A DNA stretch of 64,000 bases from a virus (taxonomy: Duplodnaviria > Heunggongvirae > Uroviricota > Caudoviricetes): IMG/VR virus record IMGVR_UViG_3300011008_000006; one strand, given 5' to 3'. The notes under the pieces are model-generated. The model worked only from the letters and a program-made list of their open reading frames with translations. It had not been told where the DNA came from and searched no databases. Shown here piece after piece: positions 1 through 64,000 of this stretch (position 1 is its first letter; every line of letters begins with the position of its first letter). The translations under genes and the position numbers were made by a program.

Positions 1-72
1 TAAATAATTAGTTTCAGCAGTAGTTTTATCCATGACGTCCGCGATTTCACCTAATGCAACTAAATCTAAGAA

Positions 73-705
73 ATTACGAGATAATTCTACTCCTAATGTA
101 TCATCTAACACTTCACAAAATTTATAAGTCACGCCTGCACCACAAAGTGATTTATTTTCATAGTTTTTAGATAATTGATTATTAATAATAATAGTATTAG
201 TAGCAGTAGAAACTACTGGCTCTCCATTGTCATTATATAACTATTCGTGATGGTCTAAAATAAGACAATCAATTCCTAATTGTTCCAGCCGCGAATGTTC
301 TTTTACATCAAAGCTAGCACTATCAGGGCAAATAACTAAATTATATACTGGATCATCTTCAATTTCATCAATTACATCACTTAAGCCGTGTTGTTTATGA
401 CTATGTACCATAAAATTTAAAGAAGCATTTGGAAATATATGCTTTATATATAGCCAAAGAATAGCAGAACTTGTAAATCCGTCTGCATCAGCATCTACAA
501 TAAATAATATATTATTATTTGCTCGCAGATGTTTTAACAACATTTCTACTCCTGCTTCTATATTATCTAAATCATATGGATTTAATTCACAAGCAAATGT
601 AGGATGTAAAAATTTATCAATTTCTTTTACTCCTCTATCTATTAAAATTGCTTGTAAAGCCTAATCTGGATTTGATGGATAATTATTTCTTAACTTATAT
701 CTCAT
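73..705 (-). CDS. DHH-family phosphoesterase (RecJ/NrnA-like); read through 3 in-frame TAGs
   Basis: ORF 241..543 has the DHH motifs (IVDADADG, LILDHHE). It continues in the same frame across TAG at 661-663, 241-243 and 94-96, up to ATG at 703-705 (RBS GGAGAA) and stop TAA at 73-75. Confidence 0.6.
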
Positions 706-716
706 TACTATTCTCC

Positions 717-1841
717 TTACTTTACTTTTACTCTTGTTTTATATAAATGTTCAAATACATCTTTACCTCGGTCATAAGGTGAATCTTTTTCTTTTAGGAC
801 ATTATCAAAGTCCCATATATATGAAAAGGTTGCTTGATTTCTATACTTTCTACAAAGAGAAATTAATTTTTCTCTATACTTTTTTGCTTTTTCATCATGA
901 CAATCTTCATATTCTTTATCAAGAGCAACAATTATTTCATTTGCTCCAAGAATATTTGTTAATAAACTAATATGATATTTATTAAAAGTTGAACCACAGC
1001 AGGCGACTGCGTTACTTAAATCTCCATAATAACCATCATCAAGTAGTACTGATTTTTCACCTTCAACAATAATAGCACTTCGTCTATATTGAATACCAAT
1101 TTGATGTTCATAAATACCATATAGATTAAACTGTAACTGATGTGTATATATTTTATCTCCTATTTGAATAGGACGATATTTACCTAATTCAATATCTTCT
1201 GGCTCAATAGAACGTGCGCGAATACCTATTAGACGCCCATTTATATCAAAATGTGGAATAATGATTTTATTTTGTCCAATTGAAAAACTAATTTGAAATC
1301 TATCCATAGACTCTTTTGTTATTCCATCTCTTAACCATAATGGATGATAATATTTTGTAAAATATGATAATACAACTTCAGGATATTCATCTAAAATAGG
1401 AATATTTTTTGTATATTTATATCTATCTCTATCTAATTCTTCTCCACGATTTTTTCGTTCTTTAATATGTGTAATTTGTTTTAAGCAATGTTTTACATAG
1501 TCTTCTGCTTCATCATCTGTGATGTCTCGGTTTTCATTTACACTAATAAATTTTTTATATAATGTAAAAATTGACATTGCTTCATTACATTCTGTATAAC
1601 AGCGAAAAATTTTATTATTTTGATACCAATATAATTTCATGCTTTCCGCCGCGTGAAGAGGATTATGACAAATAGTAGGACAAATTAAATAATCTTTTTC
1701 TTTATATACTGCTATTTGATCTACACCCAAACTTTCTAAAAAAGTTTTTACATCTTCTAAGGTAATAGAGTTTATAATATCTTGTTTAGTTATATCTATA
1801 TAATCTAATTCAGTATCTTGCTCTTTTAATGTCGTCAACAT
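717..1841 (-). CDS. DNA primase (DnaG-like; CHC2 zinc finger plus TOPRIM)
   Basis: Cys/His zinc-finger segment CPTICHNPLH...CYTEC and TOPRIM segment IIVEGEKSVLLDDGYY; complete 374 aa ORF. Confidence 0.8.
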   Translation of the reverse strand: MLTTLKEQDTELDYIDITKQDIINSITLEDVKTFLESLGVDQIAVYKEKDYLICPTICHNPLHAAESMKLYWYQNNKIFRCYTECNEAMSIFTLYKKFISVNENRDITDDEAEDYVKHCLKQITHIKERKNRGEELDRDRYKYTKNIPILDEYPEVVLSYFTKYYHPLWLRDGITKESMDRFQISFSIGQNKIIIPHFDINGRLIGIRARSIEPEDIELGKYRPIQIGDKIYTHQLQFNLYGIYEHQIGIQYRRSAIIVEGEKSVLLDDGYYGDLSNAVACCGSTFNKYHISLLTNILGANEIIVALDKEYEDCHDEKAKKYREKLISLCRKYRNQATFSYIWDFDNVLKEKDSPYDRGKDVFEHLYKTRVKVK

Positions 1842-4053: not shown

Positions 4054-5052
4054 TTACATAAGTTCTTTCATTTCATCTATAAACAATTCAACCAAGTCAG
4101 TTTGAGAAGGAACTGCTTGACTGATTTTAAATTCTTCTGAGCCAAATACTCGTTTAATAATATCACGCATGATATTTGCTCGTCTGTCAGTATCTTCATC
4201 ATCTTTAGCTTGACCGAGATAAGTCATCCAGATTTCTTTAGCTTCATCCATAACCTCTTGGAAAGGACGAGCTTTTACTTGAGCAATTTCAGTGTTATCT
4301 GTTACTTCTGCCCCATCTTTTTCAACGGCGGCATCAATAGCGTCACCAATTGCTGATACTAATTCTTTATAACCGAATTTAATCTTTGGAGCAAGGTATT
4401 GATATCTAGAACCTGCAAAAACATTTGGTGTTGAGCGAGTATATAGATAACGCTCTGTGGAACCATCGGGGTTCATTTGAACTTGTAGATAACCAATAAT
4501 GTCAACAATACTATTAATAATTGTATAGGCATTGTTTGGAAGGTCAGGAGCAACTGCGGTAATAGCATTTCCTTCTTCATCCCGCATTTCAGTTGGTCTA
4601 TCTTTTGCGTGAGCAATAAATAAAATACCAAAACCAAGTAAAGTAATTTCACGCCAACATTCAGAGAACTCTGTCTTTACCATATTCCAACCTTGACCCC
4701 AAGGAACATCACGAATACTATCAACACTTTCACGCTGACATATATATTGTTCACAAAGCTGCCAAGCAATAGACGCAGTATCTACTACAATACTATCATA
4801 CATTTCTTTAGCTTGTGGCTTCCTTAACTGGCTCAAAACCTTTTTAAAGTCCGTCCAGCGAAGGATTGGAACACCACGAATACCAGCTAAAGCATTTGTG
4901 CCTTGCTCAAAATTTAGGAATAGTGCACGAGGCAATTGAGAGCCAAAAGTGGATTTACCACTTTTAGGCTAACCATAAATTAAAAGGAACTTTCCCTTGA
5001 GGTCACGAGATATTTTTGATGGCTCAAGAGAAAAAATATCAATATTCGCCAT
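4054..5052 (-). CDS. P-loop ATPase, Sak4/RecA-like recombination or replication protein; 1 in-frame TAG
   Basis: Walker A IYG(TAG)PKSGKST lies across the TAG at 4969-4971. ATG at 5050-5052 with RBS AGGAGG; in frame with ORF 4054..4935. Confidence 0.6.
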
Positions 5053-5081: not shown

Positions 5082-5972
5082 TTATTCCCAGTTATATTTA
5101 GAAGCGTTAGAAGTCGTAGCAGAAGCAGTACTCTTATTTTTAGCATCAATTTGTAACTGTTCAATTTCTGCCTTACGAACATTAAATCCTTTCTTAATTT
5201 CTGCAGGATCATAAGCAAAATCTTCTTCTTTACCTTCATCATCACCCTTAGTGATAATAAGTTCACGAATCATACGAGTTGTAGTTTCGGGAATTTCTTC
5301 ACCCCAAGAACTTGAAGAGGGAGCAGGCTTTTCTTCCATAGAAGTTACGCGAATACGACCACGAACAGAGTTTGTATCATTTACATTCCAGTGTTCGCTG
5401 ATGTAATCTACTGTGTCAGGATTTTCTACGATGAACTGTAGAACATCTACCTTACCACCATACTGAACAATTGCACCCTTGATAACTAAACGACCAGTTT
5501 CATCACCTTCGCGGTCAATTTCAGGACTCATATCCATAATGAAAATATCGAGATTAAAAGAAGCTACATCCGCAGTTGAACCACTATTAATGAAAGAGGT
5601 GTTAATTTGCCAACCACTAATTAATTGACCGCTCTTAGATATAAAGTTATTTTCACGAATATTCGCACCGGTAATACGAACTGTATCCGCGCCATCAATA
5701 CCGTTATCCTGCGCGGTTTTCATATTACGAAGATCTTGAATACTTTTGAAAGCTGGATTTGCAGTGCCATCTTTCTTAAACTTAGAAGCAAACATACTTA
5801 CAGGAATTTCACTTACTTCTTCGTGGCCGCCAAAAGTCTAAGCTACGCGAACAGTAATGTTTGCCCTATCATAAGGGGCACCATCTTTTGTCTTTCCACT
5901 ATTAAAAGTTGCATCTAATAATTTACCTACAATTGTTACTTTATTATTTCCTTGATCTGCTAATGTTTTCAT
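5082..5972 (-). CDS. putative ssDNA-binding protein (OB-fold N-terminus, acidic or low-complexity tail); 1 in-frame TAG
   Basis: ORF 5082..5795 extends through a TAG near 5838-5840 to ATG 5970-5972 (RBS GGTGGA). N-terminus NKVTIVGKL...ANITVRV is SSB-like. Confidence 0.4.
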
Positions 5973-6675: not shown

Positions 6676-7059
6676 TTAGTTTTCAGAAATTTTAAATAAT
6701 TCTTTAGCTAATGTTTTTGTTTTTTCAGGATCATCTTTTGTTTCATCAATAATACGGGAGAGCTTAGGAATTACATCTATTTTATAATTATTTATTGCTT
6801 GCTGACTGGCTTTAATACGATCTTGAATATTATTTATAATAATATAACTAGCTGCGAGAAGTTTAGTATATTCATTATAAGTAAGTTCTTCGTTAGTTGT
6901 AAGATTATCTTCTAATTTTTGATAATCATTACGCATAACCTCCGCAGTATTATAACCCTATGTGTCTCCCTACTTTTTATCATAGTCCATTACCTATTCT
7001 GCTAATACCGCAGTAGTGTGGCACATTTCGGTAAATAACTTTTTATATGCACTATCCAT
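6676..7059 (-). CDS. hypothetical protein (3 in-frame TAGs near the N-terminus)
   Basis: ORF 6676..6936 extends in frame to ATG 7057-7059 (RBS GAGG) across TAGs at 6994-6996, 6970-6972 and 6958-6960. Confidence 0.35.
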
Positions 7060-7068: not shown

Positions 7069-9441
7069 TCACATAATTTCAATATTTTTACTGCGGGTAT
7101 CAATAATACGGACACCCACTGTAGAACGATTTTGAACAGGAATTGTATTTATATCTAATAATACAGCCTTATTATTTGCTGATACAAATAACTTTGTTTG
7201 AGAAAGAGGAACTGCATATATCGCGGCAATTTGTTCTTCTTTTAATGTCATAACCTGACTGCCGCGACTACCACGAGAAATCATATTAAAATCTTCAATC
7301 GCAGTAATTTTTCCCCTACCTGATGTATCTATTGTTAAGATACCTTTATATTCAACATCCTTTTTAATAATTGTTGCTGATTGGATATATTCATTTTTCA
7401 TTAACTTAATAGCTTTCACACCTTTAGTAACACGGCCGGTAAATGATATATCTTCTACTGAATAGAAATTATAATAACCAGAAGAATTAACAACGAAGAT
7501 TTTATCTTCACCAGTTAAAGAAAGATATGCACCAATTAAAGTATCATTTTCTTCTAACTTTACTGCGACGACGCCTTTTTTCGCACGAGCACTATATTCT
7601 GTAATAGAACTCTTTTTAATATATCCATTTTTACTAATAGTAATCAAACTATTATAAGCATTAAATGACGTAGCATCAATTAATAGGATGACTTTTTCAT
7701 TTTCTTGTAAAGCAAGTAGTTCATAAATACTATAATCTTTACCATACTCTAAATTACTAATAGAAAGATTATACATTCTACCAATATTTGTAAAAGCAGT
7801 AATTAATCCCAGATTAGTAGTATATAAAGTATTGATTAAGTTTGTATTCTTAGGAGGCTTAATATTTACGCCTTTATTACCACGTTTGCCGCCTTGTAAA
7901 TCTTCCTTTTTGATTACACGAAGCATATTATTATCAAATAACATAACTCCTACTTCTTCTTCAGGAGTAGTTTCTACTGGTTCATCTTCGGTAGGTAAAA
8001 TATTCGTTATTTTTGTGCGTCGTGCATCGCCATATTTATTAGCTACTTCTTGTAAAGTTTTAATTAGTTCATTGTTTAAAGCCGTAGTATCAATTAATAA
8101 GTGTTGATACTCCGAGATTTTTCTACCAAGTTCTTCCAATTCATCATTTAATTTTATAATGTCTAATTTGGTTAAACTTGATAGTTTCATCGCAAGAATT
8201 GCCTTTGCTTGTTCTTCATTAAATCCATATGTAGCAATTAATTTTTGTGATGCTTCTGTTGGATTTGAAGAAGAACGAATAAGCGCAACAACTTCATCAA
8301 TAATTGAATATGCTTTTATTAGACCTTCTACGATATTTTTTCTAATAAGAGCTTTATCTAAATCAAATTGAATAATATTACATTTACATTCATGAATATG
8401 ATTAATATAGGCATCACATGCTTCTCTCCAACCAAATACACGAGGGAAACGTCCTTTATCAAGTAAAATCATATTGATTGAAAACCAATTTTCAAGAGAA
8501 GTATCTTTATACAGTTTTTCAATCATTTTTTTTGGATTTGCGCTTTTTGTTAAGTAGATACGAATATCTGCAACTTTTTTTGTATGGTCTACAACTTTAT
8601 CAATACCATAGTTTGGGTCATTAGTTGTTAGTTCAGCTAATTGGTCTATAATAGTATTTGTAAAAACTCCATGAGGAAGTTCAGTTGCTTTAATTAAGTT
8701 TTGATCTGGAATATATTCTAATGTTGCTCTTAGTCTAACAGAAGCACCCTTACCATATCTTAAACTTTCTTTTACAGCTTGAGAATTTGTAATGATTCCG
8801 CCGCATGCAAAGTCAGGAGCACAGTAAATTTCATCAAAACTTATTTCTGGATTTTGGATAATTTTAATTAGTGCTTCATTTACTTCTTTCAGATTAAATT
8901 GAGGAACACTTGTTGCCATAGCCACAGCAATACCGGAACAACCATTTACAATATTCCAATATCCAATAGAAGGAAATACAGATGGAATTTCTTCTGTATC
9001 GTCATAGTTCCAATACCATTGTTCTCCAATAGCATTTTTCTTTAATCCATTAAATAGATAATCTGTTAATTCGCTAGAACGCATTTCAACATAGCGCGCG
9101 GCCGCATGACTATCTGGAGAAGAAGGATTACCATAGCTACCTTGAACTTCTTCAAGTGGGTAATGATAAGACCAAGGACGAGCAGAACGAATAAATGTAT
9201 CATACATTGCCACATCGCCATGGACATATGATTGCGTCATCGCGGCGGCGACAGATTTCTGGGCTTTCTGGAATTTATCTTTATGCGTTAATTTGTTGGT
9301 GTATTGAGCATAAAGACCTTGTCGTAAGCCAATTTTCAACATGTCACGTACATCTGGAATAGCACGCTCTTGCGCGACTGATGCAGCATATTTTAAGAAG
9401 GCTTCTTCTGTCGTTTTTTGAAAGTCTACATTCTTAATCAT
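7069..9441 (-). CDS. DNA topoisomerase II subunit A (GyrA/ParC-like, T4 gp52-like)
   Basis: Active-site region HGDVAMYDT...AAARYVE matches GyrA AAMRYTE (catalytic Tyr); 790 aa. Confidence 0.85.
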   Translation of the reverse strand: MIKNVDFQKTTEEAFLKYAASVAQERAIPDVRDMLKIGLRQGLYAQYTNKLTHKDKFQKAQKSVAAAMTQSYVHGDVAMYDTFIRSARPWSYHYPLEEVQGSYGNPSSPDSHAAARYVEMRSSELTDYLFNGLKKNAIGEQWYWNYDDTEEIPSVFPSIGYWNIVNGCSGIAVAMATSVPQFNLKEVNEALIKIIQNPEISFDEIYCAPDFACGGIITNSQAVKESLRYGKGASVRLRATLEYIPDQNLIKATELPHGVFTNTIIDQLAELTTNDPNYGIDKVVDHTKKVADIRIYLTKSANPKKMIEKLYKDTSLENWFSINMILLDKGRFPRVFGWREACDAYINHIHECKCNIIQFDLDKALIRKNIVEGLIKAYSIIDEVVALIRSSSNPTEASQKLIATYGFNEEQAKAILAMKLSSLTKLDIIKLNDELEELGRKISEYQHLLIDTTALNNELIKTLQEVANKYGDARRTKITNILPTEDEPVETTPEEEVGVMLFDNNMLRVIKKEDLQGGKRGNKGVNIKPPKNTNLINTLYTTNLGLITAFTNIGRMYNLSISNLEYGKDYSIYELLALQENEKVILLIDATSFNAYNSLITISKNGYIKKSSITEYSARAKKGVVAVKLEENDTLIGAYLSLTGEDKIFVVNSSGYYNFYSVEDISFTGRVTKGVKAIKLMKNEYIQSATIIKKDVEYKGILTIDTSGRGKITAIEDFNMISRGSRGSQVMTLKEEQIAAIYAVPLSQTKLFVSANNKAVLLDINTIPVQNRSTVGVRIIDTRSKNIEIM

Positions 9442-9878: not shown

Positions 9879-9941
9879 TTGTTACCTCAATTATTTATAA
9901 TATTAAAATCAACATTTTCAAACAATTATATGTTTCCAATT

Positions 9942-10637
9942 CTAATAACACCATACTTGCTTGAAACTTCTTTCTGTAATTCCAGTATTTTTATAATCTT
10001 CATAAACTTGCTTCATAGTTTCGCCATTCTTTTTTCTTAAACGAATATTTTTGACCATATCTTCATTTAATTTTGCTCTTCCATTAGAAGAGCCCTTGTG
10101 GGAATTACGTTGAAATAAATAATATTGTCTATTTTCTTCTGTATAAACATCCATATGAACTTCACGCCAATTCTCGCCCAACCAAATCTTATGAAACCCG
10201 CCTTCACTTATTCTATCAGAAAATTCATTATAAACGTCTTCTTTTTTTAAATGTTGATTATAACATTCTCTAATATAATAAATATCATCAATAGTTAATT
10301 TGTGATTAGGATGTTTTTCACCAGACATGCCATATTGTGGAAAATCATACCCACAAGTTTCATTATATCCATAAGTATCTATACAGCTATGAAATTGACG
10401 AATATACTAATTTTCTTTCGCATCTAATTCTTCTACTTGACATTCTTCAAGGATTTCAAATGAAAAAGCATCTAGGCCATATTTTCTAAAAGCTCGATAT
10501 AAATATTTATCATATTCTTTATTTAGTATAAATGCTCTATTTTTATGAACTGTCCACCTATGCATTATATCTTTTGACTATCCAATATAGACTTTACCAT
10601 TGATATTATTTGTTATTTTGTAAATGCCAGTAATCAT
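9942..10637 (-). CDS. GIY-YIG homing endonuclease; 2 in-frame TAGs
   Basis: N-terminus GIYKITNNINGKVYIG(TAG)SKDIMHRWTVH. The first TAG sits in the conserved YIGxS position and a second lies at 10407-10409. Start ATG 10635-10637 with RBS AGGAGG. The gene sits between the topo II A and B subunit genes. Confidence 0.7.
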
Positions 10638-10690
10638 ATACAAGCACCTCCTGATTTCCTTCTATCAGAAAGTAATCTCACCTAGTCCTT

Positions 10691-53390: not shown

Positions 53391-53394
53391 TAAT

Positions 53395-53467: not shown

Positions 53468-53471
53468 TAGT

Positions 53472-53551
53472 AGCCCGCCTCAGATTTGAACTGAGAACCC
53501 GAAGGCACGCATTTTGAGTGCGCTGCGTAAACCAATTTCGCCAGCGGGCCA
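53472..53551 (-). tRNA. tRNA-Leu (anticodon CAA), type II
   Basis: Acceptor GGCCCGC/GCGGGCT, A73, 3-bp D-stem, anticodon stem GCGCA/TGCGT, loop CTCAAAA, variable arm GCCTTCGGGTT, T-arm CTCAG-TTCAAAT-CTGAG. Confidence 0.7.
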
Positions 53552-53559
53552 TACGTAAA

Positions 53560-53986
53560 TAGGCTGTTCGTCAAATTCCATTTAACATTGCGGGCATAGG
53601 GATTTCACCTTACCTCAGATTCATCATTCTGCACCTATTTACACAATAATTAGCTGTTCATCTAACTCCATTTACTACTGCTGCTTTTCCCGCGTGAGCA
53701 ATCTCAACACTGTCTTAGGATTTTTCCTCGGAATTTTTGATTGCTCTTGTTTCAGCGTACATCTCCACAAGGACTTAGCTGATTGGCTTCGTAGCACTAA
53801 TTATTTTACATAGGTTATTGTTCCACTATCAACTACTTACAGGGTCCTCTTACCCAAGCCAACAATAGGCTGGTTTTCAATACCATTTAACTTCTGCCTT
53901 TTGACGCCCAAGTCTTTTGGTACAGCTCATCAAACAGCACTCTTACCATATCCTTGATTCGTTACGAAAGTACCTATTTTCAAAAA
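53560..53986 (-). ncRNA. about 430 nt GC-moderate non-coding segment between the 134 nt tRNA-like RNA and tRNA-Leu
   Basis: No ORF; transcribed within the tRNA operon that starts at promoter 55627..55655. Confidence 0.3.
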
Positions 53987-54120
53987 TGGTGCTGGTGGCC
54001 GGACTCGAACCGGCACGCTCAAAGAGCATCAGATTTTAATGGTACTCGGCACTGGTGCTGCCCCAGCGAAAGTCACTGGACACCGAGTGTCTGAGGTGTC
54101 TGCCATTCCACCACACCAGC
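53987..54120 (-). ncRNA. about 134 nt elongated tRNA-like RNA with encoded CCA
   Basis: Acceptor GCTGGTG/CACCAGC (perfect) followed by A-CCA. T-arm GCCGG-TTCGAGT-CCGGC. About 60 nt extra GC-rich sequence between the D region and the T-arm. Overlaps spurious ORF 54055..54252. Confidence 0.4.
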
Positions 54121-54273
54121 ATGAATGCTACTATTAACCGTCGTAGCCACGTGCTCCCCTGGTACGCATTGTTAAGAGGCGTGGGCAAGTCTATTAAAAC
54201 TAGATACGCTTATCTTCCCGGAGCCGACCCGGTGCTTCAAAATACCGCTTGAGAAGAAAAATTGCTGACGTAT

Positions 54274-54344
54274 CTCGGCTTGGAGCGGCATACCCGATTT
54301 GAACGGGCGAAATTTGCTTGGAGGGCAAAGGTGTTACCACTACA
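54274..54344 (-). tRNA. tRNA-Gly (anticodon TCC)
   Basis: Acceptor GCGGCAT/ATGCCGC, D-arm GTGT/ACAC, anticodon stem TTTGC/GCAAA, loop CCTCCAA (C33 is unusual), T-arm GCCCG-TTCAAAT-CGGGT. Confidence 0.6.
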
Positions 54345-54424
54345 CTAATGCCGCATTGCCTACTTAACCCAATAGGTTTAGATATAAAAGTGATCTCTTA
54401 CGAGGGTAGAAAGAGAAGAGAGCA

Positions 54425-54661
54425 TTATTCTTCTTTTATTTGAGTTCCAGTTATAATACTACGCTTGTATTTAACATAATCAGGGTCTAGGCACTTATAC
54501 TTTACTGGCTTACTCGAATTAGGCACACGATCAAGTATAGAGCGAACAGGAGGATCGAATGATGTCTCCTTCGTGGGATATAGTAATTCGTCACGTGGGA
54601 CTCTGTCTTGTGGCGCATCTCTTCCATTCTTCCTTTTTTCTTTTATTTGAGTCTCAGTCAT
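54425..54661 (-). CDS. hypothetical protein with internal T.TQIKE repeat
   Basis: 78 aa ORF lying between tRNAs. Confidence 0.25.
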   Translation of the reverse strand: MTETQIKEKRKNGRDAPQDRVPRDELLYPTKETSFDPPVRSILDRVPNSSKPVKYKCLDPDYVKYKRSIITGTQIKEE

Positions 54662-54756
54662 AGTTATTCTTCCTTTTTTTATTTTAGTTTCCGTTATAAC
54701 GAGAAAGTAGTTTACCTACTTAACTCAATAAGCTAGAGTATCTTTAATAAAGGTAG

Positions 54757-54831
54757 TCGAGCATCTTCGATTCGAACGAAGCATCTCGCGCTTATCAGGC
54801 GCGCGCACTAAACCAACTGTGCTAATGCTCG
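54757..54831 (-). tRNA. tRNA-Ile (anticodon GAT)
   Basis: Acceptor CGAGCAT/ATGCTCG, D-arm GCAC/GTGC, anticodon stem CGCGC/GCGCG, loop CTGATAA, T-arm CTTCG-TTCGAAT-CGAAG. Confidence 0.8.
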
Positions 54832-54853
54832 ATAGCGGCTTTCGCCGCGTTAA

Positions 54854-55393
54854 TTAGGGCCACTCTCCTAATGGCATACCAAGACCAGCACGTTCAACAT
54901 TAGTATTATAAAATACACCTGCTGTTGCTGGGCCAGTAAGAAGTTCATTAGCAATAGTTTCGTATAGGGTACTAATAATACCGTGGCAATCATTCAGATT
55001 ATCTGCGGCAAATTGTACCACGCAATTATTAAATACTACATAAGTTGTACCAATCCACATATAACCTTCTTCTGCAGGACATACAGAATAAGCATAAGCA
55101 GGATTGCCGCTAAAAGCTGTATCAAATAGTTCAACCTTACTTGTAAAAGCGCGATTACTAGGTGTGCCATCAATAATAACCTTTAGAGAAATATTACCAA
55201 AATTAACTTCTTCTGGAAGAATCTGTAGTAAAGCCGCAACCTTATCGCCATTATTGCAAGCAAGTATTACAGTAGGATGACTACCAGAAAAATCACAATT
55301 GAAAGCAATCTGAGGGTCACCATCAAATAGAGCTTCAAGTTTACGAATTACAATAGTCCAAGGGGGTAAAATCTTTAAACGTACATCACTCAT
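54854..55393 (-). CDS. hypothetical protein
   Basis: 179 aa ORF lying between tRNAs. Confidence 0.4.
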   Translation of the reverse strand: MSDVRLKILPPWTIVIRKLEALFDGDPQIAFNCDFSGSHPTVILACNNGDKVAALLQILPEEVNFGNISLKVIIDGTPSNRAFTSKVELFDTAFSGNPAYAYSVCPAEEGYMWIGTTYVVFNNCVVQFAADNLNDCHGIISTLYETIANELLTGPATAGVFYNTNVERAGLGMPLGEWP

Positions 55394-55473
55394 ATTATAT
55401 ACCTCACATAATAAAATAGCAGTAGGTTGCTAGCCGCACATCGGTTTAGTCACCACTTTTGCTCAGGTGAGAG

Positions 55474-55544
55474 CGGCCGATGAGAGAATTGAACTCCCCT
55501 GGGGTGGTTAACAGCCACCTGCCATACCACTTGGCGAATCGGCC
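55474..55544 (-). tRNA. tRNA-Asn (anticodon GTT)
   Basis: Acceptor GGCCGAT/ATCGGCC, D-arm GCCA/TGGC, anticodon stem GGTGG/CCACC, loop CTGTTAA, T-arm GGGAG-TTCAATT-CTCTC. Confidence 0.8.
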
Positions 55545-55626
55545 ATATCATACCCGAAGGTATGATGACGGAGTTAATTTATGATTGGTAGTAAGAAGAG
55601 CGACCTTTTCTCTTTCTTACATATTT

Positions 55627-55655
55627 ATTATAACATAAATTTATATCTATGTCAA
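55627..55655 (-). promoter_or_regulatory. consensus promoter driving the tRNA-Asn ... tRNA-Leu unit
   Basis: attata 55627-55632; tgtcaa 55650-55655. Confidence 0.6.
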
Positions 55656-55799
55656 ATAATAATCTGGTAAATTTTCAAATTGTTTTAAATTAGAAATAAA
55701 GCGTTTTACATTTATATTTCTTATCCCTGCTCGTAATAGATGCTTCATTTTCTAACTAATAGCAATACCTAACGCATCTTCACTTTTACTTTCATATTT

Positions 55800-57323
55800 C
55801 TAATATACTTCAAAATAAAATTGCCTAATATAATACCAATTATCATATAATAAATCAGGCCGTTTTTTCGCGCATAATAGAAAACTTTCATATAATCCAA
55901 CAAATAATACATTTAATTCATTTAATAATACATATATATTTATATTATTTTTTTCTGCATTATCTATTACATGTTTAGCATTAGCCGCTAATCCAGCAAT
56001 TTGTTTTGTATAATAATATTCTTTTCCACCTGCATGAGTAATAGAATTAGCATCATAAGTATAGAAATAAATTGGATATTCATAAAATACTTTATGTTCT
56101 GTAGTATCATACATCTCAATATGATTTAAAATCATATCACAAGTATGATTAAAACCTATATCTTCATTAGAGTAAGAAGATTCTTTACAAAAATCAATAT
56201 CATATAATTCTAAAAATTCTCGCTTATAAATATGCCCGTGCATTAATGGATTCCAATCTGTACTAAATTGTTTATTTTCTTCATTATACCATTGATATAA
56301 ATATATATCTGGCATTGTATTATTTTTTATATCATTTAATATTCTATCAAGAACTTCATTTGAATATAAATAATCACCAGTATCAATAAACATAAGATAT
56401 GGATTACTAGTATTTTTTATACCTATTTCACGAGCAACACCAGGGCCAGAATTTTTCTTTAATGTTATCCAATTTACATATGGAAATAATGAAAATATTT
56501 TCTTCTTATAAGAAATTGGAGAAGCATCATCAATAATATTAATTGTAATTTCTTCTCGATTTGGAATACTCTTTAAAGTAGTAATTAATCCCTATTCATT
56601 ATTATAAGTCGGAATTATAATATCTAAATTAAAATTATCTTCTTTATTTCTTACTAATTCCATTTTTTCATAATAAGAAATAAGCGGCAAGTCTTGCCAT
56701 TTTTTTATTGCAGCATAATGAATAATTTTTCTATGTGAGGCTTTCTATGTATAATTATTTATATTATAATCTGCTGGCAAATTATAAATATAATTTTGAC
56801 ATAAAATATTAATTGCATCTTGCTCTGGATAACCTAATTTTATTGAATTAAGAAGATAAATAATTTCATCATCTTTTTTATCTTCTCTCATTTTTTTTAA
56901 ATTAAATAAAGCAACGCCAACATTAATATAAGTAAAGTCATCATATGTTTTATCTGGTTCAGGAACTGCCGCGACATAATAATTAGATATATCTATATCC
57001 CATAAATTAGATATATTCTCATTTATAATTGTATCAACATCTAATGATAAAATTGTATCTAACTATGGAAAAATTTTAGTAAAGGCTGCTTTTATTAGTG
57101 CCATATAAGTCCAAGAACTTTTATAATTTGGGCCATTCTTTCTAAAATAATTCTAATTACTTATATTTATACATTCTATTCCCTATGGTACTTCATAAGG
57201 AAAAATATCATCTTCAATAAGAAAATAAATTTTTTCTACATTAGAATGAATAAGTAATGATTTCGCCGCAATTACCATATTTTTATATAAATTTCTCGTA
57301 CCACAATAAACTGCTGCTCTCAT
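55800..57323 (-). CDS. two-domain glycosyltransferase (GT8-like plus GT2-like); 5 in-frame TAGs
   Basis: ORF 55800..56393 extends upstream through 5 TAGs to ATG 57321-57323 (RBS GGTGAT). DXD motifs LDVDTII (GT8-like) and IIDDAS (GT2-like). Confidence 0.5.
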
Positions 57324-57334
57324 TATATCACCAC

Positions 57335-58279
57335 TTATTCATAAGGGACATTAATATAATCTAATACTTCTTTTAATCCTAGGCCGCCTTCTTCCCAAGG
57401 ACGCATACAATATTCCCAAATTTTTGGATGTGATACCTTTAATTGTTGAAAACGATTTGGACATTTTTCACAATGTGCACCAAAACCACAAAAAATACAA
57501 CCAGTTCTTTTAATACCTGTTGTAGTCCAATTACCTTTTTTATCTTTTATAATATCACCATATAAAGGACAATATGGAATATTATATTTTACTAAATATT
57601 CTAAAATATCATTATCAGTCCAGAAAGATAATGGCTTACATGTAGGTTTATCGCTATCAAATAAATTACAACCGCTACGCATCCATTCATTACGACGAGC
57701 AATAGATTCAGATGCTAATGTTCCAAGAATTGGAAAACGACCAGTTTCTTTTGAATAGTGATGATTTGGTTGTTTTTTCATTACATCACAACAATAATCA
57801 CTAATTTTAAATGGTGCTTGAACTAAGAAATTCCATTTACCATCACCAAAACCAAATATTTTACTATCATATTCACCGCTCAAAAATTTTGCGCGTGCGG
57901 AATTAGGATTTCGTTTTGCAGTAGCAACATAGCCAGCAATTTTTTTACTTACAATTGGATAGCCAAATTCTTCAATTACTTGTCTAAACGTTTTCTTAGG
58001 TCTAATAACTTCTGTATTTTCGTGTGATTTTACAAATTCTTTTAGTTCTGGATATTCTAAGCCTGTGTCAATAAAAACAGCAGGAGTATCGGGAAATACA
58101 CGTCTTACTAAATCAAGTAAAACTGTACTATCTTTTCCACCGCTAAAAGCAACAAAAATCTTTCCATTAAAATGGTCACCAAATTCAAGAATCCTTGTCT
58201 AAGAAACTTGAATTTTTCTTTCTAGCGGCCATGCCTACATTTCTTTTAAATCAGTTGCGGTATATTTGTTTTCTGCCAT
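57335..58279 (-). CDS. PAPS-reductase-family PP-loop ATPase (CysH/DndC-like); 2 in-frame TAGs
   Basis: ORF 57335..57883 extends upstream through 2 TAGs to ATG 58277-58279. FSGGKDS PP-loop; C-terminal Cys cluster. Confidence 0.5.
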
Positions 58280-58544
58280 ATTATCACCATATAAAAAAAA
58301 TAAACTAGACGGTCTTTTTTAATGCGACCAACTACACCACGCGGCCGGAGCCCACCCGACCACGGAGGGAATCGAACCCTCGCCTTAATTTTACAGAATT
58401 ATTTTCAAAGAAAAAAATTGCTGACCCGTCTTATGGGCTATGGTGTAGCAAGTAAGATTTGAACTTACAGTGTTAGACGGCCCGTCGGCAAAAACATCTA
58501 ACAACTCTCCCGCGTAAGCATTACTTTGGTCGCTTACTGGTTGC

Positions 58545-58570
58545 CACATAAAAGCCGAGCACACCCTCGG
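58545..58570 (-). terminator. rho-independent terminator ending the 1.9 kb non-coding transcript
   Basis: Minus strand reads GCCGAG-GGTGTG-CTCGGC followed by TTTTAT. Confidence 0.55.
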
Positions 58571-58817
58571 CATGGGCTATTATGGTTGTCTCCCTTATAA
58601 GGGGTGCATTTGACTCCATTACAGGCACCATATTGTTATAGTGTGTAGCCGCGCACTGCACTTTACTTCGCTTCATTTATACTCTTTTCCGCTAAGCCAC
58701 ATATCACGTGCCTCGAAGAGGGCTGCTCAGAAACTTGCTTCGATATTTGGACGTGCCGATGGTAGTTTAAGTGCTAAATTCGTGTTAAGAGTTGCATCAT
58801 TAAGGAGGTGATGCAAA

Positions 58818-58893
58818 TGGCGGTGCATACGAGATTTGAACTCGTGTTTCCAGTGTGACAGACTGGGGATTTAACCAATTAAACTAATGCACC
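58818..58893 (-). tRNA. tRNA-Asp (anticodon GTC), CCA encoded
   Basis: Acceptor GGTGCAT/ATGCACC, G73, anticodon stem CCAGT/ACTGG, loop CTGTCAC, T-arm ACGAG-TTCAAAT-CTCGT. Confidence 0.8.
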
Positions 58894-60431
58894 CTATAAT
58901 ACCCACATCCGGGAACGATCCGGAATTTTCACCTTGAAAGGGTGACGAACTAACCAATTATTCGATGCGGGCATAATTCCAGTGTTGGCGCACCGGAATA
59001 GCGAAACGCCGCCGACTAGTTATTATTACGCCAATAATAATAACAAACTTTTTTTAAACTTTTAATCTTTGTTTTTCATCGACTTTGCTTCTCACATTTT
59101 TACACAGATACGTGTCAACTGTTTGCTCTTCATTGGAATCGAACCAATCCTTCCGGGCGTGCTTTCCATTACACTATCAGAGCATAACTGCGCGTTTTGA
59201 TAACCCAGACGCGAAGTCACTCTACTGGGGAGGGAAATTCATCCACTCATACTGCGTTCAACTGTTGATCAAGCAATCGTAATTATGGGTTAGCTTTCAC
59301 CCATACCCCATATCCGTCGGGTCGCATTTACCTACACATTGTGACGGGTGCGGAGGGCCCTTCCACCGCTTTTCTGATTTATCGACAATCAGTAAGGACT
59401 TCACCCATTACTTTCCTTCCATCCCGTTTTTCGGCATCCTTTTTAAGTGTAAGGTCACTAATTTTCCCATCCCATTTTTTGAAAGGCTTAGTTTGGAAAA
59501 TCTAACGTCCTGTCGTTGCCTTTTATAACCATTTCACAGAATGGACTCACTTATTTATACTAGGTCTCTCCTAGATTTAATTGGCTGTTCTTCAAACTCC
59601 ATTTAGCCCATTCTTCACTTTGCTTGTATAGCTGCTTGCAAGCCAGCTTTGCTTTTCAAAAGCTAATACATTGAGCATTTGGGCACCATACTATGCGCTT
59701 CCCGTCATCCCTGGCGGAGCCATGTCCATAGCGTTATGTAATGAGAATCTCGCATTACATCCATACAACTAGTTGTGAAAACGATTCATTTCCACTTTTT
59801 CGATAACTAGTAATTACTTTGGCTATCAGGTTGCCATCCCAATCTAACGATGATTGACGACCTGTGAATAAGGTTTTAACAGGTTTTACTTACCGCACCT
59901 GTACCATCGGTAGCTTACGCCGCACTTATTGGTGTTTTGGAACCATACGCTCTCCAGTTGCCACCTTTGAGCGGGGCTAGACTCTAAGTGCATCAGGGTT
60001 TTCTGACATCATTGTGCCTCTACCTTTTCGCCCTAACATCACTACGTCGATGTTTCTCATCTTGAACGGATACCTTCTAACGGTCTGGTATCAACCGTTG
60101 GTCGCAGATAATGGAGTTGGACCATTTCCTCAAGCGTTATGAGCGCCGCGGCTTAACCGTTTGCCCTATCTGCGATAAAGAGAAAATATTTTCTCTTTAC
60201 GATACTTACAGCATAATTTTAAAAAAAGTCAAGGCACATAAAATTCTTTTGCATTACCATACTATGCTACTTGCCCAATGGGGCGAGACGAGATTTGAAC
60301 TCGCGATTCAAAGATTATCTTTGATTTTGCTGTATGTGCCTTTAAATGGAAAGTACGAGAATCGAACTCGTGTCCGCTGCGTGCAAAGCAGCAATTCTAG
60401 CCCCTAAACTAACTCCCCATCTCATATATCT

Positions 60432-60460
60432 ATTATATCATAATTTTAGAAAGAAGTCAA
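60432..60460 (-). promoter_or_regulatory. consensus promoter driving the 1.9 kb non-coding transcript
   Basis: attata 60432-60437; agtcaa 60455-60460. Confidence 0.6.
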
Positions 60461-60588
60461 ATATTTAACTTCTACTTGATTTTGAAGCTCAAGCCAAGCT
60501 TCAAATTCTTCTTCAAGTTCCTCACAATTCGGTTCACAGAGAAAATCATCAAGTTCATACATACTCTTTCCTTCCTCCTTACATATCT

Positions 60589-60617
60589 ATTATATCAGAA
60601 TTTTAAAGAAAAGTCAA
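60589..60617 (-). promoter_or_regulatory. consensus promoter upstream of a small ORF and the 60.6 kb leader
   Basis: attata 60589-60594; agtcaa 60612-60617. Confidence 0.55.
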
Positions 60618-60980
60618 ATAATATCCATACTAAATTTTAGTATTAAATTTAAGATTGGGTCTTAAAATGTATAACCGTAATTTAGTATGGATAGCAATTT
60701 CCTCTTGAAATTACAAAGTCATATCTATATCGAAGATAAACCGAGCCATTGATAGCTGGTATTCTCCACTAACAACTTCCATTATCGTAAAAGTTGCCCT
60801 ACGTCATAGTATTACTCCGGATTAACTTACATGGCTATGAACTCATGGCGGTCATTCACGCAGACCATAATTAGCCCCGACGTTTATTCTACTTATCCAT
60901 GGAAAGGCGAGAATAAAAGAAACCTTTAATAAAATGTCCTATTGGGTGCGCATTGTAAAGAGGCGTAATAGGAACTTTGG
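60600..60980 (-). ncRNA. about 380 nt non-coding leader upstream of tRNA-Arg(TCT), starting with a 13 bp hairpin
   Basis: Stem tccatactaaatt / aatttagtatgga at 60608-60675. No ORF. Lies behind promoter 60589..60617. Confidence 0.3.
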
Positions 60981-61052
60981 TACAGGCGCCCAGAATCGAA
61001 CTGAGATTGTAGACTTAGAAGGACTATGTTCTGTCCGTTGAACTACGCCCGC
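60981..61052 (-). tRNA. tRNA-Arg (anticodon TCT)
   Basis: Acceptor GCGGGCG/CGCCTGT (2 G.U pairs), D-arm GTTC/GAAC, loop CTTCTAA, T-arm CTCAG-TTCGATT-CTGGG. Confidence 0.6.
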
Positions 61053-61537: not shown

Positions 61538-61945
61538 TTAGACTTCTCGCCAACCAGCAGGATATGCCGCGGGAGACCAAATATTATTATCAATTGTACT
61601 TTCATATACTTTATCATTAAATAATACTTTATCTCCTATCATATAACCATTAGTACTTCCAGGTTGTTCCCATGCAGGAATAACATTTTCATCTGGAATT
61701 AATACTTTAGCCCAAAGACTTGGGGCGTCAATTGGATTCCAAGCTACTTGTGGTATATGCTATTGTAAGCATTTATATAATATTTCATTATAACGTACTC
61801 TATCTCCAACATTATACATATCTTCTTTATTTGGATTCCAAATAGGAAATAATTGCGGCGCTTCAAGCGCATCTATATCATCTAATGAAATTGCTGCCTT
61901 TTCTATTAAAGGGCGTAATTTTCTTGCTAATTCAATTAATGTCAT
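61538..61945 (-). CDS. protein with two CBM5/12-type carbohydrate (chitin)-binding repeats; 1 in-frame TAG
   Basis: NVGDRVRYNEILYKCLQ(TAG)HIPQVAWNPIDAPSLWAKV fits the CBM5/12 pattern Y.C.QAHTS..W.P..LW.V. The TAG sits where Ala or Ser normally occurs. Confidence 0.5.
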
Positions 61946-61959
61946 AATTACTCAACTCC

Positions 61960-62193
61960 TAATAGAATTTTTGCCGCGGCAAGTTCTTCTGCAAGTTGTT
62001 TAGATTGAGAAGATAATAATTGAATATATTCATCTTTATCATATTCAATATAATCATATTCATAACCATTTTCTTCATATCCACCAATATTTGTATTAAA
62101 GGAAGTAATATTAGAAGATACAAATACTTTTGTTTCAGTAAAAGTTACTTCTGTTGGCTATGAAGAACTTTGTACTTTACCATAATTTTTCAT
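61960..62193 (-). CDS. hypothetical protein (1 in-frame TAG)
   Basis: ATG 62191-62193 behind RBS AGGAGG. Confidence 0.3.
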
Positions 62194-62198
62194 AGCAA

Positions 62199-64000
62199 TC
62201 AACCTCCTATTTTACTTTGCCATAAAGCATAATTATTATTATGGATAGAATTTTTAGTAGGAATATAAACAAGACGCGCGCCAAAAGGTGCAGCATAATA
62301 ACTTGGGTTTTTATCGCAAGCATAATAAAATATACCATCTTTTTGCTGGAATAACCAATTACCACCATGAGCAACATAATTAACACCATTTAGATTTGTA
62401 GTAACCCAAATGCTATCTCCTACTGGTGTTGCGCTATTGGCCCCACTTGCTTCTGCGGGTAAAAATACCCAGTCATATTTTTCATTACCATAACCCATAC
62501 CAGAAATCCAATCACTATTATTGGGGAGACAGAAGCCTACACTTTTATAGTCGTCTGTAATAGTAGTTGAATAATTAGAATTTGTACAAATATATGGAAT
62601 ACCGCCCTATTGAACACCATTACCTGAAATATTTATATTGCCAATGAATTTCCAAATATTACCAAATAGATTTTCTTCACCGCGATAAGAGATACAACGC
62701 TTACCATTTGTATTATATGTAGTATTTAACATTGTATTTACACTACTTTCTGCCGCGCCAGAGTTATTACCCAATGCCGCGGTAGAACCTGTATTATTTG
62801 CATAGTTTCTATCATAAGCATTATTAATACTACATACGCCGTTTTCAATTGCATTTTGAAGATTTAAAGTACCATATTCTATAATACTTAACATCTAGTC
62901 AATACTACGAGTTTGCATTGTTTCAATGTGCCAACCTTCACCGCGATTTCTAGCGAGTTGTTCTGCTTTATCAATTGTTAAAGCATTATTTTTACCACTA
63001 ATAGGTTGAACATTTGCAATTGAAGATAATTTATCTTCTGAAAAATTAATTCCACTTACGTCTGTAGTAAGATATGTATTCGCAGAAGTATCATAAGCAG
63101 AGCCTTCGTAAGCAGATAATAGAATATATTCTAATTCATTTCCTGCATTATCAATAAAAGCTGGATGAAGTTTAAATCCTGACTAAGCAATTGGAGAAAT
63201 AATTAATGATTCTTTATGAATAACTTTACCCATTAAGCCATTGGTAGTATTAATTGGAACGCGCTGATAATAAAATTTTGGTTGATAAACCATTACCTAC
63301 CCATTAGAGCCATCTTCTCTATAATTATTATCTCCATAGAAAGCAGTAATAGTACCATCATCTGCTACATTACAACGCATACGTTTATACATTAAGTAAT
63401 CAGTAAAATTAGTATTAGATGTCGCTTCTTGTGTGCGCCCAACAGATTTATTTTCATAATCAATATTTAAACCTACTGCATCTCGCGCCTAATATGTACC
63501 AGTACGTAGAAGTAGTTCAATTAAGGCTTGTTCTGTAGTGGTACTTGCAGTAATATTCCCATCAGAACCAATAACTACCATTTGGCCTGCATTATTAGAA
63601 CCAAGATTAGAGGTTCCACCACTATTGCCGCCGCTAGAATTAATTTGAGATTGTAAATTATTTTTTACATTTTCAACATAAGTCTTAATGGCTTTCTAAG
63701 TCATAGAGCCATCTTCATTGGTTCCTTCACTAGTATAATTTTTTTCTACTATATAATTAGTAGTAGTACCATTTTTTGTTACGCTTGCTTGTCTAATTTT
63801 TGCTGCGGAAGTATTTGCGTCAGTAACCGTTACTGTCCCACCAGCATTAGCAATTTGACTTTCTAACGTAGTTGTTCTTGATTTTAAATCAGCAACATCT
63901 TCAACTGTTGTTCCAAGTTGTTCAGCCACAACAGCGGTTGCCGCGGCCTCAAAATCTGCTTTAATTTCTGCTAATTCACCTGCGGCCGCGCTTGCTGCTT
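62199..64000 (-). CDS. tail-fiber / receptor-binding-like protein, partial (5' end lies beyond the window); many in-frame TAGs
   Basis: ORFs 62199..62498, 62607..62894 and 63696..63929 plus the stretches between them join in one frame across at least 6 TAGs. Ser/Thr/Asn/Gly-rich; stop TGA at 62199-62201. Confidence 0.45.

Follow-up and report, generated by a model that had tools for sequence, protein, structure and literature searches.

Phages that follow genetic code 15, with the amber codon TAG read as glutamine, have been described among the crAss-like, Lak, Garnet/Amethyst, and Phass-1 phages (Ivanova 2014; Yutin 2021, PMC7886860; Borges 2021/2022; Peters 2022, PMC9523058; PMC10607447), and for the crAss-like phages this code has been validated by proteomics (Borges preprint; PMC9523058). 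They combine TAG codons aligned with Gln in conserved genes, a phage tRNA(CUA), low G+C content, avoidance of TAG as terminator, an uneven use of TAG, and a set of genes compatible with the standard code. The same combination is found in the 64,000 nucleotides (nt) of the Caudoviricetes record IMGVR_UViG_3300011008_000006 from IMG/VR, the whole stretch analyzed here and called the window below. Unlike in the described phages, the TAG-rich genes of the window are not only structural or lysis genes, and include a glycosyltransferase, a PAPS-reductase-like gene, and homing endonucleases; a further difference is that the window has no gene for RF2 or for an aminoacyl-tRNA synthetase. The recoding itself is of an already known type, that of code 15 gut phages, whereas the architecture of its amber suppressor tRNA, which has a second, anticodon-like arm, looks new. 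The best overall explanation of the window is a code 15 phage with TAG read as Gln by a two-armed CUA suppressor and with TAG partitioned among its genes, to which we give a probability of roughly 85%.

Among described tRNAs, su+7 of Escherichia coli is the closest to this suppressor, sharing with it a tRNA-Trp scaffold, the change of C35 to U that creates CUA, an A/U pair at 1-72, G73, and the insertion of Gln (PMC9976931), the charging of the window tRNA being deduced from TAG sites. It differs in its normal 5-nt variable loop and canonical 76-nt cloverleaf, where the window tRNA has an insertion hairpin of 20 nt and a C27xU43 mismatch, and in its origin, su+7 being a laboratory mutant of a cellular gene and the window suppressor a member of a conserved phage gene family. 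Anticodon-arm mimics are known from the thrS operator of E. coli and from yeast AspRS, GlnRS, and other mRNAs, in which a stem and a 7-nt loop with the cognate anticodon suffice for recognition by a synthetase (PMC9976931); these mimics are parts of mRNAs and control how the synthetase is translated, whereas the mimic of the window is inside a tRNA that reads a stop codon. A long variable region is also seen in class II tRNAs, allo-tRNAs, and tRNA-Pyl, and some allo-tRNAs and Ser-type tRNAs have stop anticodons (PMC5389517). However, class II arms end in 3-5-nt loops, with an anticodon-like sequence in 0/187 Ser/Leu/Tyr tRNAs, while the window arm has a 7-nt loop, and the acceptor and D arms of the window tRNA are of Trp type and not Ser type.

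The suppressor tRNA and its second arm

The suppressor belongs to a large array of tRNA genes, the relevant parts of which are the following:

44879-61052, minus strand: tRNA array with 29 tRNA genes and interspersed small open reading frames (ORFs), including the suppressor
45165-45238, minus strand: ordinary tRNA-Gln(UUG) with A1-U72 and G73, the only sense Gln tRNA of the window
51143-51237, minus strand: amber suppressor tRNA with anticodon CUA (ARAGORN, Rfam), 95 nt, CCA encoded
51178-51190, minus strand: extra hairpin in the variable region, stem U48-G49-C50/G58-C59-A60, 7-nt loop C51-U52-C53-U54-G55-A56-A57
51181-51187, minus strand: decoy loop CUCUGAA, decoy "anticodon" CUG at 51183-51185
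51202-51204, minus strand: anticodon C34-U35-A36 in the loop CUCUAAA, on a stem of 4 base pairs (bp) plus the C27xU43 mismatch
60102-60174, minus strand: further tRNA(CAU), seen in the Rfam scan of the whole window only; missing from the sub-region scan, its sequence is still that of a plausible tRNA

The Rfam tRNA model recognizes the suppressor at 55.4 bits and fits it to a normal cloverleaf with 20 extra nt inserted in the variable region; the acceptor end reads A1-U72, G2.U71, and G73. The structure was taken from this model, the comparative alignment, and RNAalifold; a single-sequence minimum free energy fold gave no cloverleaf (z = -0.9). For the scaffold, the CUA tRNA of one relative (L011) is 92.7% identical over nt 2-41 to E. 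coli tRNA-Trp, its sole match in E. coli genomes, and in our alignment A5 it differs from E. coli trpT by U in place of C35 and by the insertion alone; in the same alignment the window suppressor has the D arm and the anticodon arm in common with E. coli tRNA-Trp. These alignments show the suppressor scaffold to be, at the level of sequence, that of a tRNA-Trp with C35 changed to U. Scored pairwise against 847 phage tRNAs, the body could not be assigned clearly to any isotype.

Other identities were considered and left aside. A derivation from tRNA-Gln and a class II tRNA were the first ideas, replaced by tRNA-Trp after BLAST against GenBank phages and E. coli genomes. The label tRNA-Pyl given by ARAGORN is due to the CUA anticodon alone, and was rejected given a Trp-like cloverleaf, no pylS or pylBCD among the window proteins scanned, and TAG codons that do not align with Lys/Pyl. 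A class II suppressor of tRNA-Ser type was rejected on A1-U72, the Trp-type D arm, the 7-nt anticodon-like loop, and the score of Ser at TAG sites (-109 bits, see below).

The second arm is not a peculiarity of the window. IMG/VR was scanned with a pattern made up of the Trp-type CUA anticodon arm, 22-34 free bases, and a T loop, the scan was repeated with UCA, CCA, and GCA anticodons, and arms were counted in unique tRNAs whose variable region is long, which for CUA meant a length of 85 nt or more. A stem-closed 7-nt loop of the form NU(C/U)UGNN occurs in 60 of the 77 unique long CUA tRNAs; shuffled variable regions yield 1.3 such tRNAs on average and never more than 7. The decoy "anticodon" is CUG in 49 of them and UUG in 11, both of them Gln anticodons, and position 37 is A in 55/60; the search motif itself fixes positions 33, 35, and 36 and admits C or U at position 34. 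In the window, the decoy loop with its U33, CUG, and A37 corresponds to a tRNA-Gln(CUG) anticodon loop, ordinary phage tRNA-Gln having CUUUGAC or CUCUGAC. Phass-1 (OQ749652, "Caudoviricetes code 15 clade") has a 91-nt tRNA-Sup-CTA with the arm AUUCC[CUCUGAA]GGGGU, of which the Phass-1 paper makes no mention.

While the loop is constant the stem varies (UCC/GGA, UGC/GCA, ACC/GGU, GCC/GGC, CUC/GAG, UAUC/GAUG, UACGG/CCGUA, and CCAUCC/GGAUGG), and it does so with compensatory changes: UCC/GGA of relatives becomes UGC/GCA in the window, and five pair types are seen at the second pair. The covariation score is 0.555, compared to 0.19 for shuffles and 0.12-0.17 for slid partners, and RNAalifold recovered the arm independently from the full-length sequences. 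An alternative register, GCCU/AGGU with loop CUGAAGC, is possible for the window sequence alone, but the pattern of the family favors UGC/GCA with CUCUGAA. A Shine-Dalgarno or anti-Shine-Dalgarno role for the GGAGG present in the arms of many relatives was dropped, the stem being variable where the loop is constant.

The arm also separates suppressors from sense tRNAs, the Trp-like loop in UCA tRNAs being scored with the motif NUCCANN:

CUA (amber suppressors), n = 77: Gln-like loop in 60, Trp-like loop in 1
UCA (opal suppressors, 25 + 2 mislabelled), n = 27: Gln-like loop in 0, Trp-like loop, [G/C]UCCAAA, in 15
Sense tRNAs (Ser 86, Leu 73, Tyr 28, Cys 26, Trp 16, and others), n = 252: Gln-like loop in 0, Trp-like loop in 0

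Fisher tests on this specificity to suppressors give p = 1e-50 for CUA and 7e-18 for UCA. The arm that resembles a sense anticodon arm is conserved and specific to suppressors, and the type of its loop follows the residue of the stop codon, Gln-like with CUA and Trp-like with UCA, with one exception in 76. In the literature on recoded phages and suppressor tRNAs we found no published description of such an arm, though absence there proves nothing.

The exception is a 93-nt CUA tRNA with a Trp-type decoy, GAGGU[GUCCAAA]GCCUC (L228), which could be an evolutionary intermediate or a hint that TAG is read as Trp there. The UCA tRNAs with a [G/C]UCCAAA loop, on a stem of 5-8 bp, are L236, L238, L243, L245, L247, L251, L260, L262, L275, L289, L291, L293, L294, L309, and L319; several UCA arms resemble a tandem copy of the Trp anticodon arm, e.g., CGGGU[CUCCAAA]ACCCG.

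Where the scaffold of a long CUA or UUA suppressor is Ser- or Leu-like, the arm is an ordinary class II one with no decoy loop. Ser and Leu synthetases ignore the anticodon of their tRNAs. Eight CUA tRNAs have a Ser-like body, with G-C at 1-72, a Ser-type D arm, and a class II arm (L123, L185, L161, L166, L202, L180, L146, and L147), and from such bodies insertion of Ser at TAG would be expected, which is not reported in the surveys of phage recoding consulted. In the UUA control, few long tRNAs had the same anticodon-stem pattern and the genuine ones were Leu-like class II; ochre-type tRNAs with Leu-like class II bodies and no decoy arm are L354, L356, L359, L360, and L363. Long extra arms are also present in some sense tRNAs, namely three tRNA-Ile(UAU) of 92-96 nt (L143, L177, and L226), two tRNA-His (L197 and L224), one tRNA-Lys (L227), and one tRNA-Asn (L228), and they end in GNRA or other loops with no Gln- or Trp-like mimic.

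Some further observations concern these tRNAs and their surroundings. The suppressors of L011, L116, and L117 have U11-A24 in the D stem, the pairing that the Hirsh suppressor mutation G24A creates in E. coli tRNA-Trp. A full-length ROOL RNA (RF03087, 317.7 bits, model 1-574/574) lies inside the tRNA array at 52380-52964 on the minus strand, about 1.1 kb 5' of the suppressor on the coding strand; ROOL RNAs are large and structured, have no known function, and often lie beside tRNAs in phages. In L011 a tmRNA with the tag peptide DEYNFALAA (12073-12367) lies in the tRNA array near the long CUA suppressor. The 91-nt tRNA-Sup-CTA of Phass-1 adjoins one of 75 nt (L233 1408-1573, corresponding to OQ749652 62445-62610), and the same pair is seen in L127. 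The C27xU43 mismatch (window 51211 and 51195) is common to 30 of the 77 long CUA tRNAs, and 4-bp anticodon stems have been linked to relaxed wobble reading of stop codons (PMC13092985).

What could such an arm do? GlnRS, the glutaminyl-tRNA synthetase, uses U35 and G36 as determinants, and mutation of a determinant costs up to 1e5-fold (PMC9976931). Amber tRNA-Trp is glutaminylated, and amber tRNA-Ser with its long variable arm acquires Gln identity via acceptor-stem changes (PMC9976931), so that a long variable arm is no bar to Gln identity; anticodon-loop mimics in mRNAs bind ThrRS and other synthetases (PMC9976931). At the acceptor end, the CUA tRNAs with a decoy arm have G73 in 51/60 and a pair other than G-C at 1-72 in 55/60, a combination found among phage sense tRNAs in 27/33 tRNA-Gln, 22/26 tRNA-Trp, 0/58 tRNA-Ser, and part of the Phe, Arg, and Asn tRNAs.

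We propose that the Gln-charging enzyme of the host (GlnRS, or non-discriminating GluRS with GatCAB) would accept the suppressor through C34, U35, a weak 1-72 pair, and G73, as in su+7, and that the second arm would present the missing Gln determinant, G36 in a CUG or UUG context, and so either raise the efficiency of charging or steer identity from Trp to Gln. There would be a division of labor, one arm for the synthetase and the other for the ribosome, and the opal (UCA) suppressors of phages would follow the same design with a CCA (Trp) loop. Such two-armed suppressors, in which the true anticodon reads the stop codon and the second arm shows the sense anticodon of the inserted residue to the host synthetase, are a reading of the comparative patterns for which we see the odds as about level.

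It is also possible, if on the doubtful side, that the arm is no charging determinant but a duplication relic, a structural or processing element, a modification site, a decoy against anticodon nucleases of the host or other defences, or an antideterminant that does no more than block TrpRS, with Gln identity coming wholly from U35, C34, the weak 1-72 pair, and G73, as in su+7. In the canonical L-shape, a 3-bp variable arm keeps its loop at a long distance from the GlnRS anticodon-binding site. Related phages also have CUA suppressors of normal length, Phass-1 one beside its long one, unrelated GNRA-loop hairpins occur in other phage tRNAs, and a duplication origin is plausible for the UCA arms that look like a tandem copy; tRNAs of su+7 type are glutaminylated with no extra arm (PMC9976931). 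A neutral relic, however, would lose its fixed loop, and here the stem changes by covariation and the other arms (acceptor, D, and T) have diverged around a loop whose wobble position varies only between C and U, which give the two Gln anticodons. Loop identity following the residue of the stop codon is equally hard to fit to such an arm, as is the lack of such loops in suppressors on Ser- and Leu-like scaffolds, which are served by anticodon-blind synthetases.

TAG as a sense codon and the residue it encodes

The residue at TAG was read from relatives of the window, 115 IMG/VR loci obtained with three seed genes (PAPS-reductase, gyrA, and DNA ligase) and lying mostly on contigs of 165-190 kb; the Metallophos gene used as seed gave one weak locus only. 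The window proteins were aligned to these loci and the codon opposite each window TAG was read off, which proved to be mostly CAA or CAG, codons that to our knowledge mean Gln in every known code. Codetta-style log-odds, summed over the 33 sites with at least five aligned relatives, reach +30.3 bits for Gln, the only residue with a positive value and the majority residue at 15/33 sites, against -36 for Lys, -56 for Glu, -99 for Tyr, -109 for Ser, and -133 for Trp. In the reverse direction, the window has Q at 26 of the 157 sites where relatives have TAG, about six times background, and W at five, a mild excess. In E. coli extract, Gln was inserted by 28/29 phage tRNA-CUA and Trp by 13/13 tRNA-UCA (PMC12636597). 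Judged by the alignments to relatives, we take the residue encoded by TAG to be settled as glutamine, i.e., genetic code 15. The original prediction, made from the letters of the window alone, had hesitated between Gln, Ser, and Ala; the Ser and Ala that it noted at the I-TevI and CBM5/12 positions reflect variable columns, the GIY-YIG site having Q in 14 relatives, TAG in five, and others in nine.

It is very unlikely that TAG is a sense codon for another residue (Trp, Ser, Tyr, Lys, or pyrrolysine) or is decoded ambiguously. Such a reading could draw on the tRNA-Trp-like body of the suppressor, as su+7 of E. coli retains some Trp acceptance, on a long variable region superficially like that of class II tRNAs, on one TAG opposite a conserved Tyr and several opposite Lys, and on the mild excess of W. 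The log-odds of Trp, Ser, Tyr, and Lys are all negative, however, Ser-type features are absent (58/58 phage tRNA-Ser have G-C/C-G at 1-72, where the window tRNA has A1-U72), and among the window proteins scanned there are no pyl genes and no aminoacyl-tRNA synthetase of any kind. Nor did these proteins include a release factor. For K, Y, W, and E, the smaller excesses are explained by their codons being one base away from TAG.

That TAG is read at all is evident from the gene calls. The window has a G+C content of 32.9% and nearly all its genes on the minus strand, and with TAA and TGA as the only stops and a minimum of 50 amino acids, 91 ORFs were called, covering 85% of the window, with 71 in-frame TAGs spread over 31 of them. 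Some 6-10 of these TAGs fall just 5' of a likelier start codon, leaving about 55-65 credible ones. All 90 complete ORFs end in TAA (72) or TGA (18), TAG being needed by none, as had been predicted, and no pattern of ORF overlap hints at a hidden TAG stop. With a greedy uniform ORF call, 72.6% of the window is coding under code 11. The figure climbs to 86.0% once TAG is taken as sense, but only to 75.7% for TGA, and the mean ORF lengthens, from 158 to 187 amino acids, for TAG alone; this is the comparison that the original prediction had proposed, and code 11 came out clearly worse. Inside the called genes, 5.2% of the triplets in one off-frame and 12.2% in the other are TAA or TGA, yet frames of 560-650 codons with 8-10 TAGs contain neither; a run of 650 codons free of TAA and TGA has P < 1e-15 if non-coding. 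The base 3' of in-frame TAGs (A 0.34, G 0.30, T 0.18) resembles the context of CAA, where terminating TAA has T at 0.53. The alignments of relatives hold 216 in-frame TAGs against 42 TAA and 18 TGA, the latter two mostly at alignment ends, and independent assemblies of relatives have TAG or CAA/CAG at the same sites. Eighteen genes have domain or homologue support that crosses TAGs (Pfam, PHROG, relatives), the following among the TAG-bearing genes of the window:

1-705, minus strand: DHH phosphoesterase (PF01368), 3' end beyond the window, 2 TAGs inside the window; Q at site 155 in 28/33 relatives
4054-5052, minus strand: AAA_24 ATPase (PF13479, E 2.5e-47, residues 22-217), 1 TAG in Walker A; Q at this site in 26/41 relatives
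5082-5972, minus strand: conserved phage protein (phrog_2367), 1 TAG; Q in 43/46 relatives
9918-10643, minus strand: GIY-YIG homing endonuclease (PF01541), 3 TAGs
12635-13183, minus strand: DNA methyltransferase (phrog_799, E 5.5e-35), 2 TAGs; Q at site 123 in 10/10 relatives
23508-24242, minus strand: HNH-type homing endonuclease (phrog_374, phrog_559, phrog_9084), 5 TAGs; Q at site 188 in 11/14 relatives
28434-30380, minus strand: 648-amino-acid protein, no assigned function and no match in Pfam or PHROG, 9 in-frame TAGs and a tenth just 5' of the likely ATG; Q or TAG at several sites in relatives (site 482: Q in 8 and TAG in 2 of 20)
55641-57323, minus strand: GT8 + GT2 glycosyltransferase, Glyco_transf_8 at residues 48-210 and Glycos_transf_2 at 235-366, both across TAGs, 8 TAGs; Q or TAG at site 57 in 6/6 relatives
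57335-58279, minus strand: PAPS-reductase-like protein (PF01507, E 4e-22), 2 TAGs near the N-terminus; at site 15 CAA in 13 relatives and TAG in 6, at site 27 Q in 16/29
61538-61945, minus strand: CBM_5_12 carbohydrate-binding protein (PF02839, E 4.5e-18, residues 36-78), TAG at residue 62
62199-63998, minus strand: tail protein (phrog_5302, E 3e-78, residues 45-582 across all 6 TAGs), 5' end outside the window; one relative has CAA, CAG, CAG at 3/5 aligned TAG sites

TAG is a sense codon wherever it is present in the window and never a terminator. The amber reassignment had been predicted by analogy to large gut phages, and the domains that span TAGs, the lack of TAG terminators, the tRNA(CUA), and the codons of relatives all bear it out. 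At least 25 genes had been expected to contain in-frame TAGs whose readthrough restores conserved proteins, and 31 of the 91 ORFs do contain them, 18 with TAG-crossing support. Several motifs are present just as first read, namely LLIYG-TAG-PKSGKST in the Walker A box of the AAA_24 ATPase, VYIG-TAG-SKD in the GIY-YIG nuclease together with YIGQS in its TAG-free paralogue (13717-14490), the two TAGs 5' of FSGGKDS in the PAPS reductase, and KCLQ-TAG-H in the CBM_5_12 protein; at least six TAGs had been claimed for the 648-amino-acid protein and for the tail protein, which have nine (plus the one before the likely ATG) and six. Some details needed correction: the glycosyltransferase is TAG-rich with eight TAGs instead of five, and the conserved DHH gene, which runs off the left edge, has two TAGs in the window and not three, the second following DHH-E and not coming directly after DHH as had been stated.

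Four genes of homing-endonuclease type are found on the minus strand, two GIY-YIG and two HNH (9918-10643, 13717-14490, 23508-24242, and 48211-48777), and TAGs in three of them imply selfish genes that have adapted to the recoding. In the GIY-YIG nuclease at 9918-10643, residue 79 is a TAG where 26/28 relatives have Tyr, probably a recent Tyr-to-TAG change in a selfish gene.

That the in-frame TAGs are left undecoded, marking pseudogenes, split genes, assembly errors, or a few weak natural readthroughs, is hardly credible, for although several small TAG-bearing ORFs lack homology support, a few TAGs lie 5' of likelier starts, homing endonucleases often decay, and one TAG stands for a conserved Tyr, this would have to be squared with 18 genes matched across their TAGs by domains or homologues, frames without TAA or TGA for hundreds of codons, identical sites with TAG or CAA/CAG in independent assemblies, the excess of TAG over TAA and TGA in the alignments of relatives, and a cognate suppressor tRNA encoded in the window.

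Uneven distribution of TAG among genes

TAG is spread over the genes in a very uneven way, with 60 of the 91 ORFs free of it (dispersion test across genes, p = 1e-10). The original prediction spoke of TAG as sense throughout the genome, which is right in that TAG is sense wherever it occurs, although it occurs in only 31 of the 91 ORFs and a 14-kb block has none. The main TAG-free features are:

7069-9441 and 10691-12565, minus strand: gyrA-like and gyrB-like genes (Pfam), both TAG-free, with the TAG-bearing GIY-YIG gene between them
30443-44505, minus strand: TAG-free block, 0 TAG in 4,337 codons against 17 expected (P ~4e-8), TAG-free in relatives too
36008-37369, minus strand: RNA ligase
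41592-43094, minus strand: DUF2828/DUF7788 protein
43144-43743, minus strand: Metallophos_2 phosphatase
43743-44258, minus strand: AAA_33 kinase

By Pfam, the block contains a phosphoesterase, an SPFH protein, DenV, an adenylosuccinate-synthetase-like protein, and a DUF5662 protein besides the last four genes listed. Other TAG-free genes of the window are DnaB, primase, DNA ligase, RNase H, and dNMP kinase, together with the gyrase-like pair. In the aligned codons of relatives there are 0 TAG in 36,207 for gyrA, 0 in 29,100 for gyrB, and 0 in 12,586 for DNA ligase, where the glycosyltransferase has 7.4 TAG per 1000 codons, the homing endonucleases 4-7, and a small gene adjoining gyrA (6676-7059) 4.0 in the same loci. 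The division of genes into those with and those without TAG is kept in over 100 contigs of related phages.

Within genes, TAGs are mildly skewed to the 5' end (21, 15, 12, 9, and 6 per quintile, p = 0.03, after removal of TAGs possibly 5' of the true start), and an early TAG would allow a cheap abort of translation when no suppressor is present. The partition fits a published model that has one gene set, the early genes, readable by the naive host and another dependent on the suppressor (Borges preprint). In the family of the window, the genes that are TAG-free throughout (topoisomerase, helicase, primase, ligase, RNA repair, and nucleotide metabolism) would be translatable by an unmodified host, the TAG-bearing genes would give full-length protein only after build-up of the suppressor tRNA, and the recoding may act as a switch of timing or containment as Borges et al. 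proposed, the timing being deduced from gene content. As to recoded codons in late genes, TAG is partitioned strongly and in a conserved way, and the tail protein has many TAGs, yet some replication genes have TAG and the window has no capsid or lysis genes; nor is the split purely one of structural versus replicative genes.

Several points weigh against the overall reading of a code 15 phage with a two-armed suppressor and a TAG switch. There is no clean early/late split, the AAA_24, DHH, and methyltransferase genes carrying 1-2 TAGs each. At some TAG sites the aligned residue is K, E, P, or Y, in one case the conserved Tyr, and the assignment to Gln draws on phage relatives rather than cellular homologues. 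CUA suppressors of normal length are found in related phages (L001, L008, L127, and Phass-1), and the arm is therefore not obligatory. The set of tRNAs was retrieved by a pattern that fixes a Trp-like anticodon arm, and, as these sequences share common descent, their counts do not represent independent events. Finally, with the decoy loop so far from the anticodon site of GlnRS, recognition would need an alternative fold or binding mode, the fold being one where either hairpin stacks under the D stem.

An RNA-repair or nucleotide-like module, TAG-free and on the minus strand (33499-44258), can be seen within the TAG-free block, comprising the RNA ligase, DUF2828/DUF7788, Metallophos_2, and AAA_33 kinase genes and also the DUF5662 and adenylosuccinate-synthetase-like ones; it may guard the phage tRNAs from host anticodon nucleases. 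A TAG-free auxiliary cluster on the same strand (17689-22253) has an adenine deaminase and two permeases of the xanthine/uracil family.

Phage family and meaning of the recoding

The window is part of a phage genome of about 165-190 kb from a rumen or gut community. No relative at the nucleotide level was found among 50,697 GenBank phages by megablast with 20 kb of the window, and the family is known only from IMG/VR contigs and bins of metagenome-assembled genomes. Its host is probably a member of the Clostridia. A contig of 33% G+C in an Acutalibacteraceae metagenome-assembled genome is syntenic with the window, which makes it phage DNA within the bin. Two rumen Clostridia contigs (48-56% G+C) have the permease and adenine deaminase pair at 76-84% identity to that of the window (L229, L230, and L231 being the loci compared), which suggests, as far as gene similarity goes, rumen Clostridia as host and as source of the captured genes.

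Code 15 thus gains one more lineage, of about 165-190 kb, tied to rumen Clostridia and rich in tRNAs. Such genomes need annotation with TAG as a sense codon; otherwise one third of the genes look fragmented. The gene-by-gene partition of TAG, conserved across the family, is useful for testing the idea of a timing switch. The second arm bears on a question left open in the recoding papers, that of how a phage suppressor is charged correctly by a host with the standard code. If our proposal is true, identity has been split from decoding in these tRNAs, which would explain both the TAG to Gln and the TGA to Trp recodings of phages, and the reassigned amino acid would be predictable from the tRNA alone. 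It would be a natural uncoupling of tRNA identity from the anticodon, of interest to tRNA biology, code engineering, and the design of suppressors that are efficient or orthogonal.

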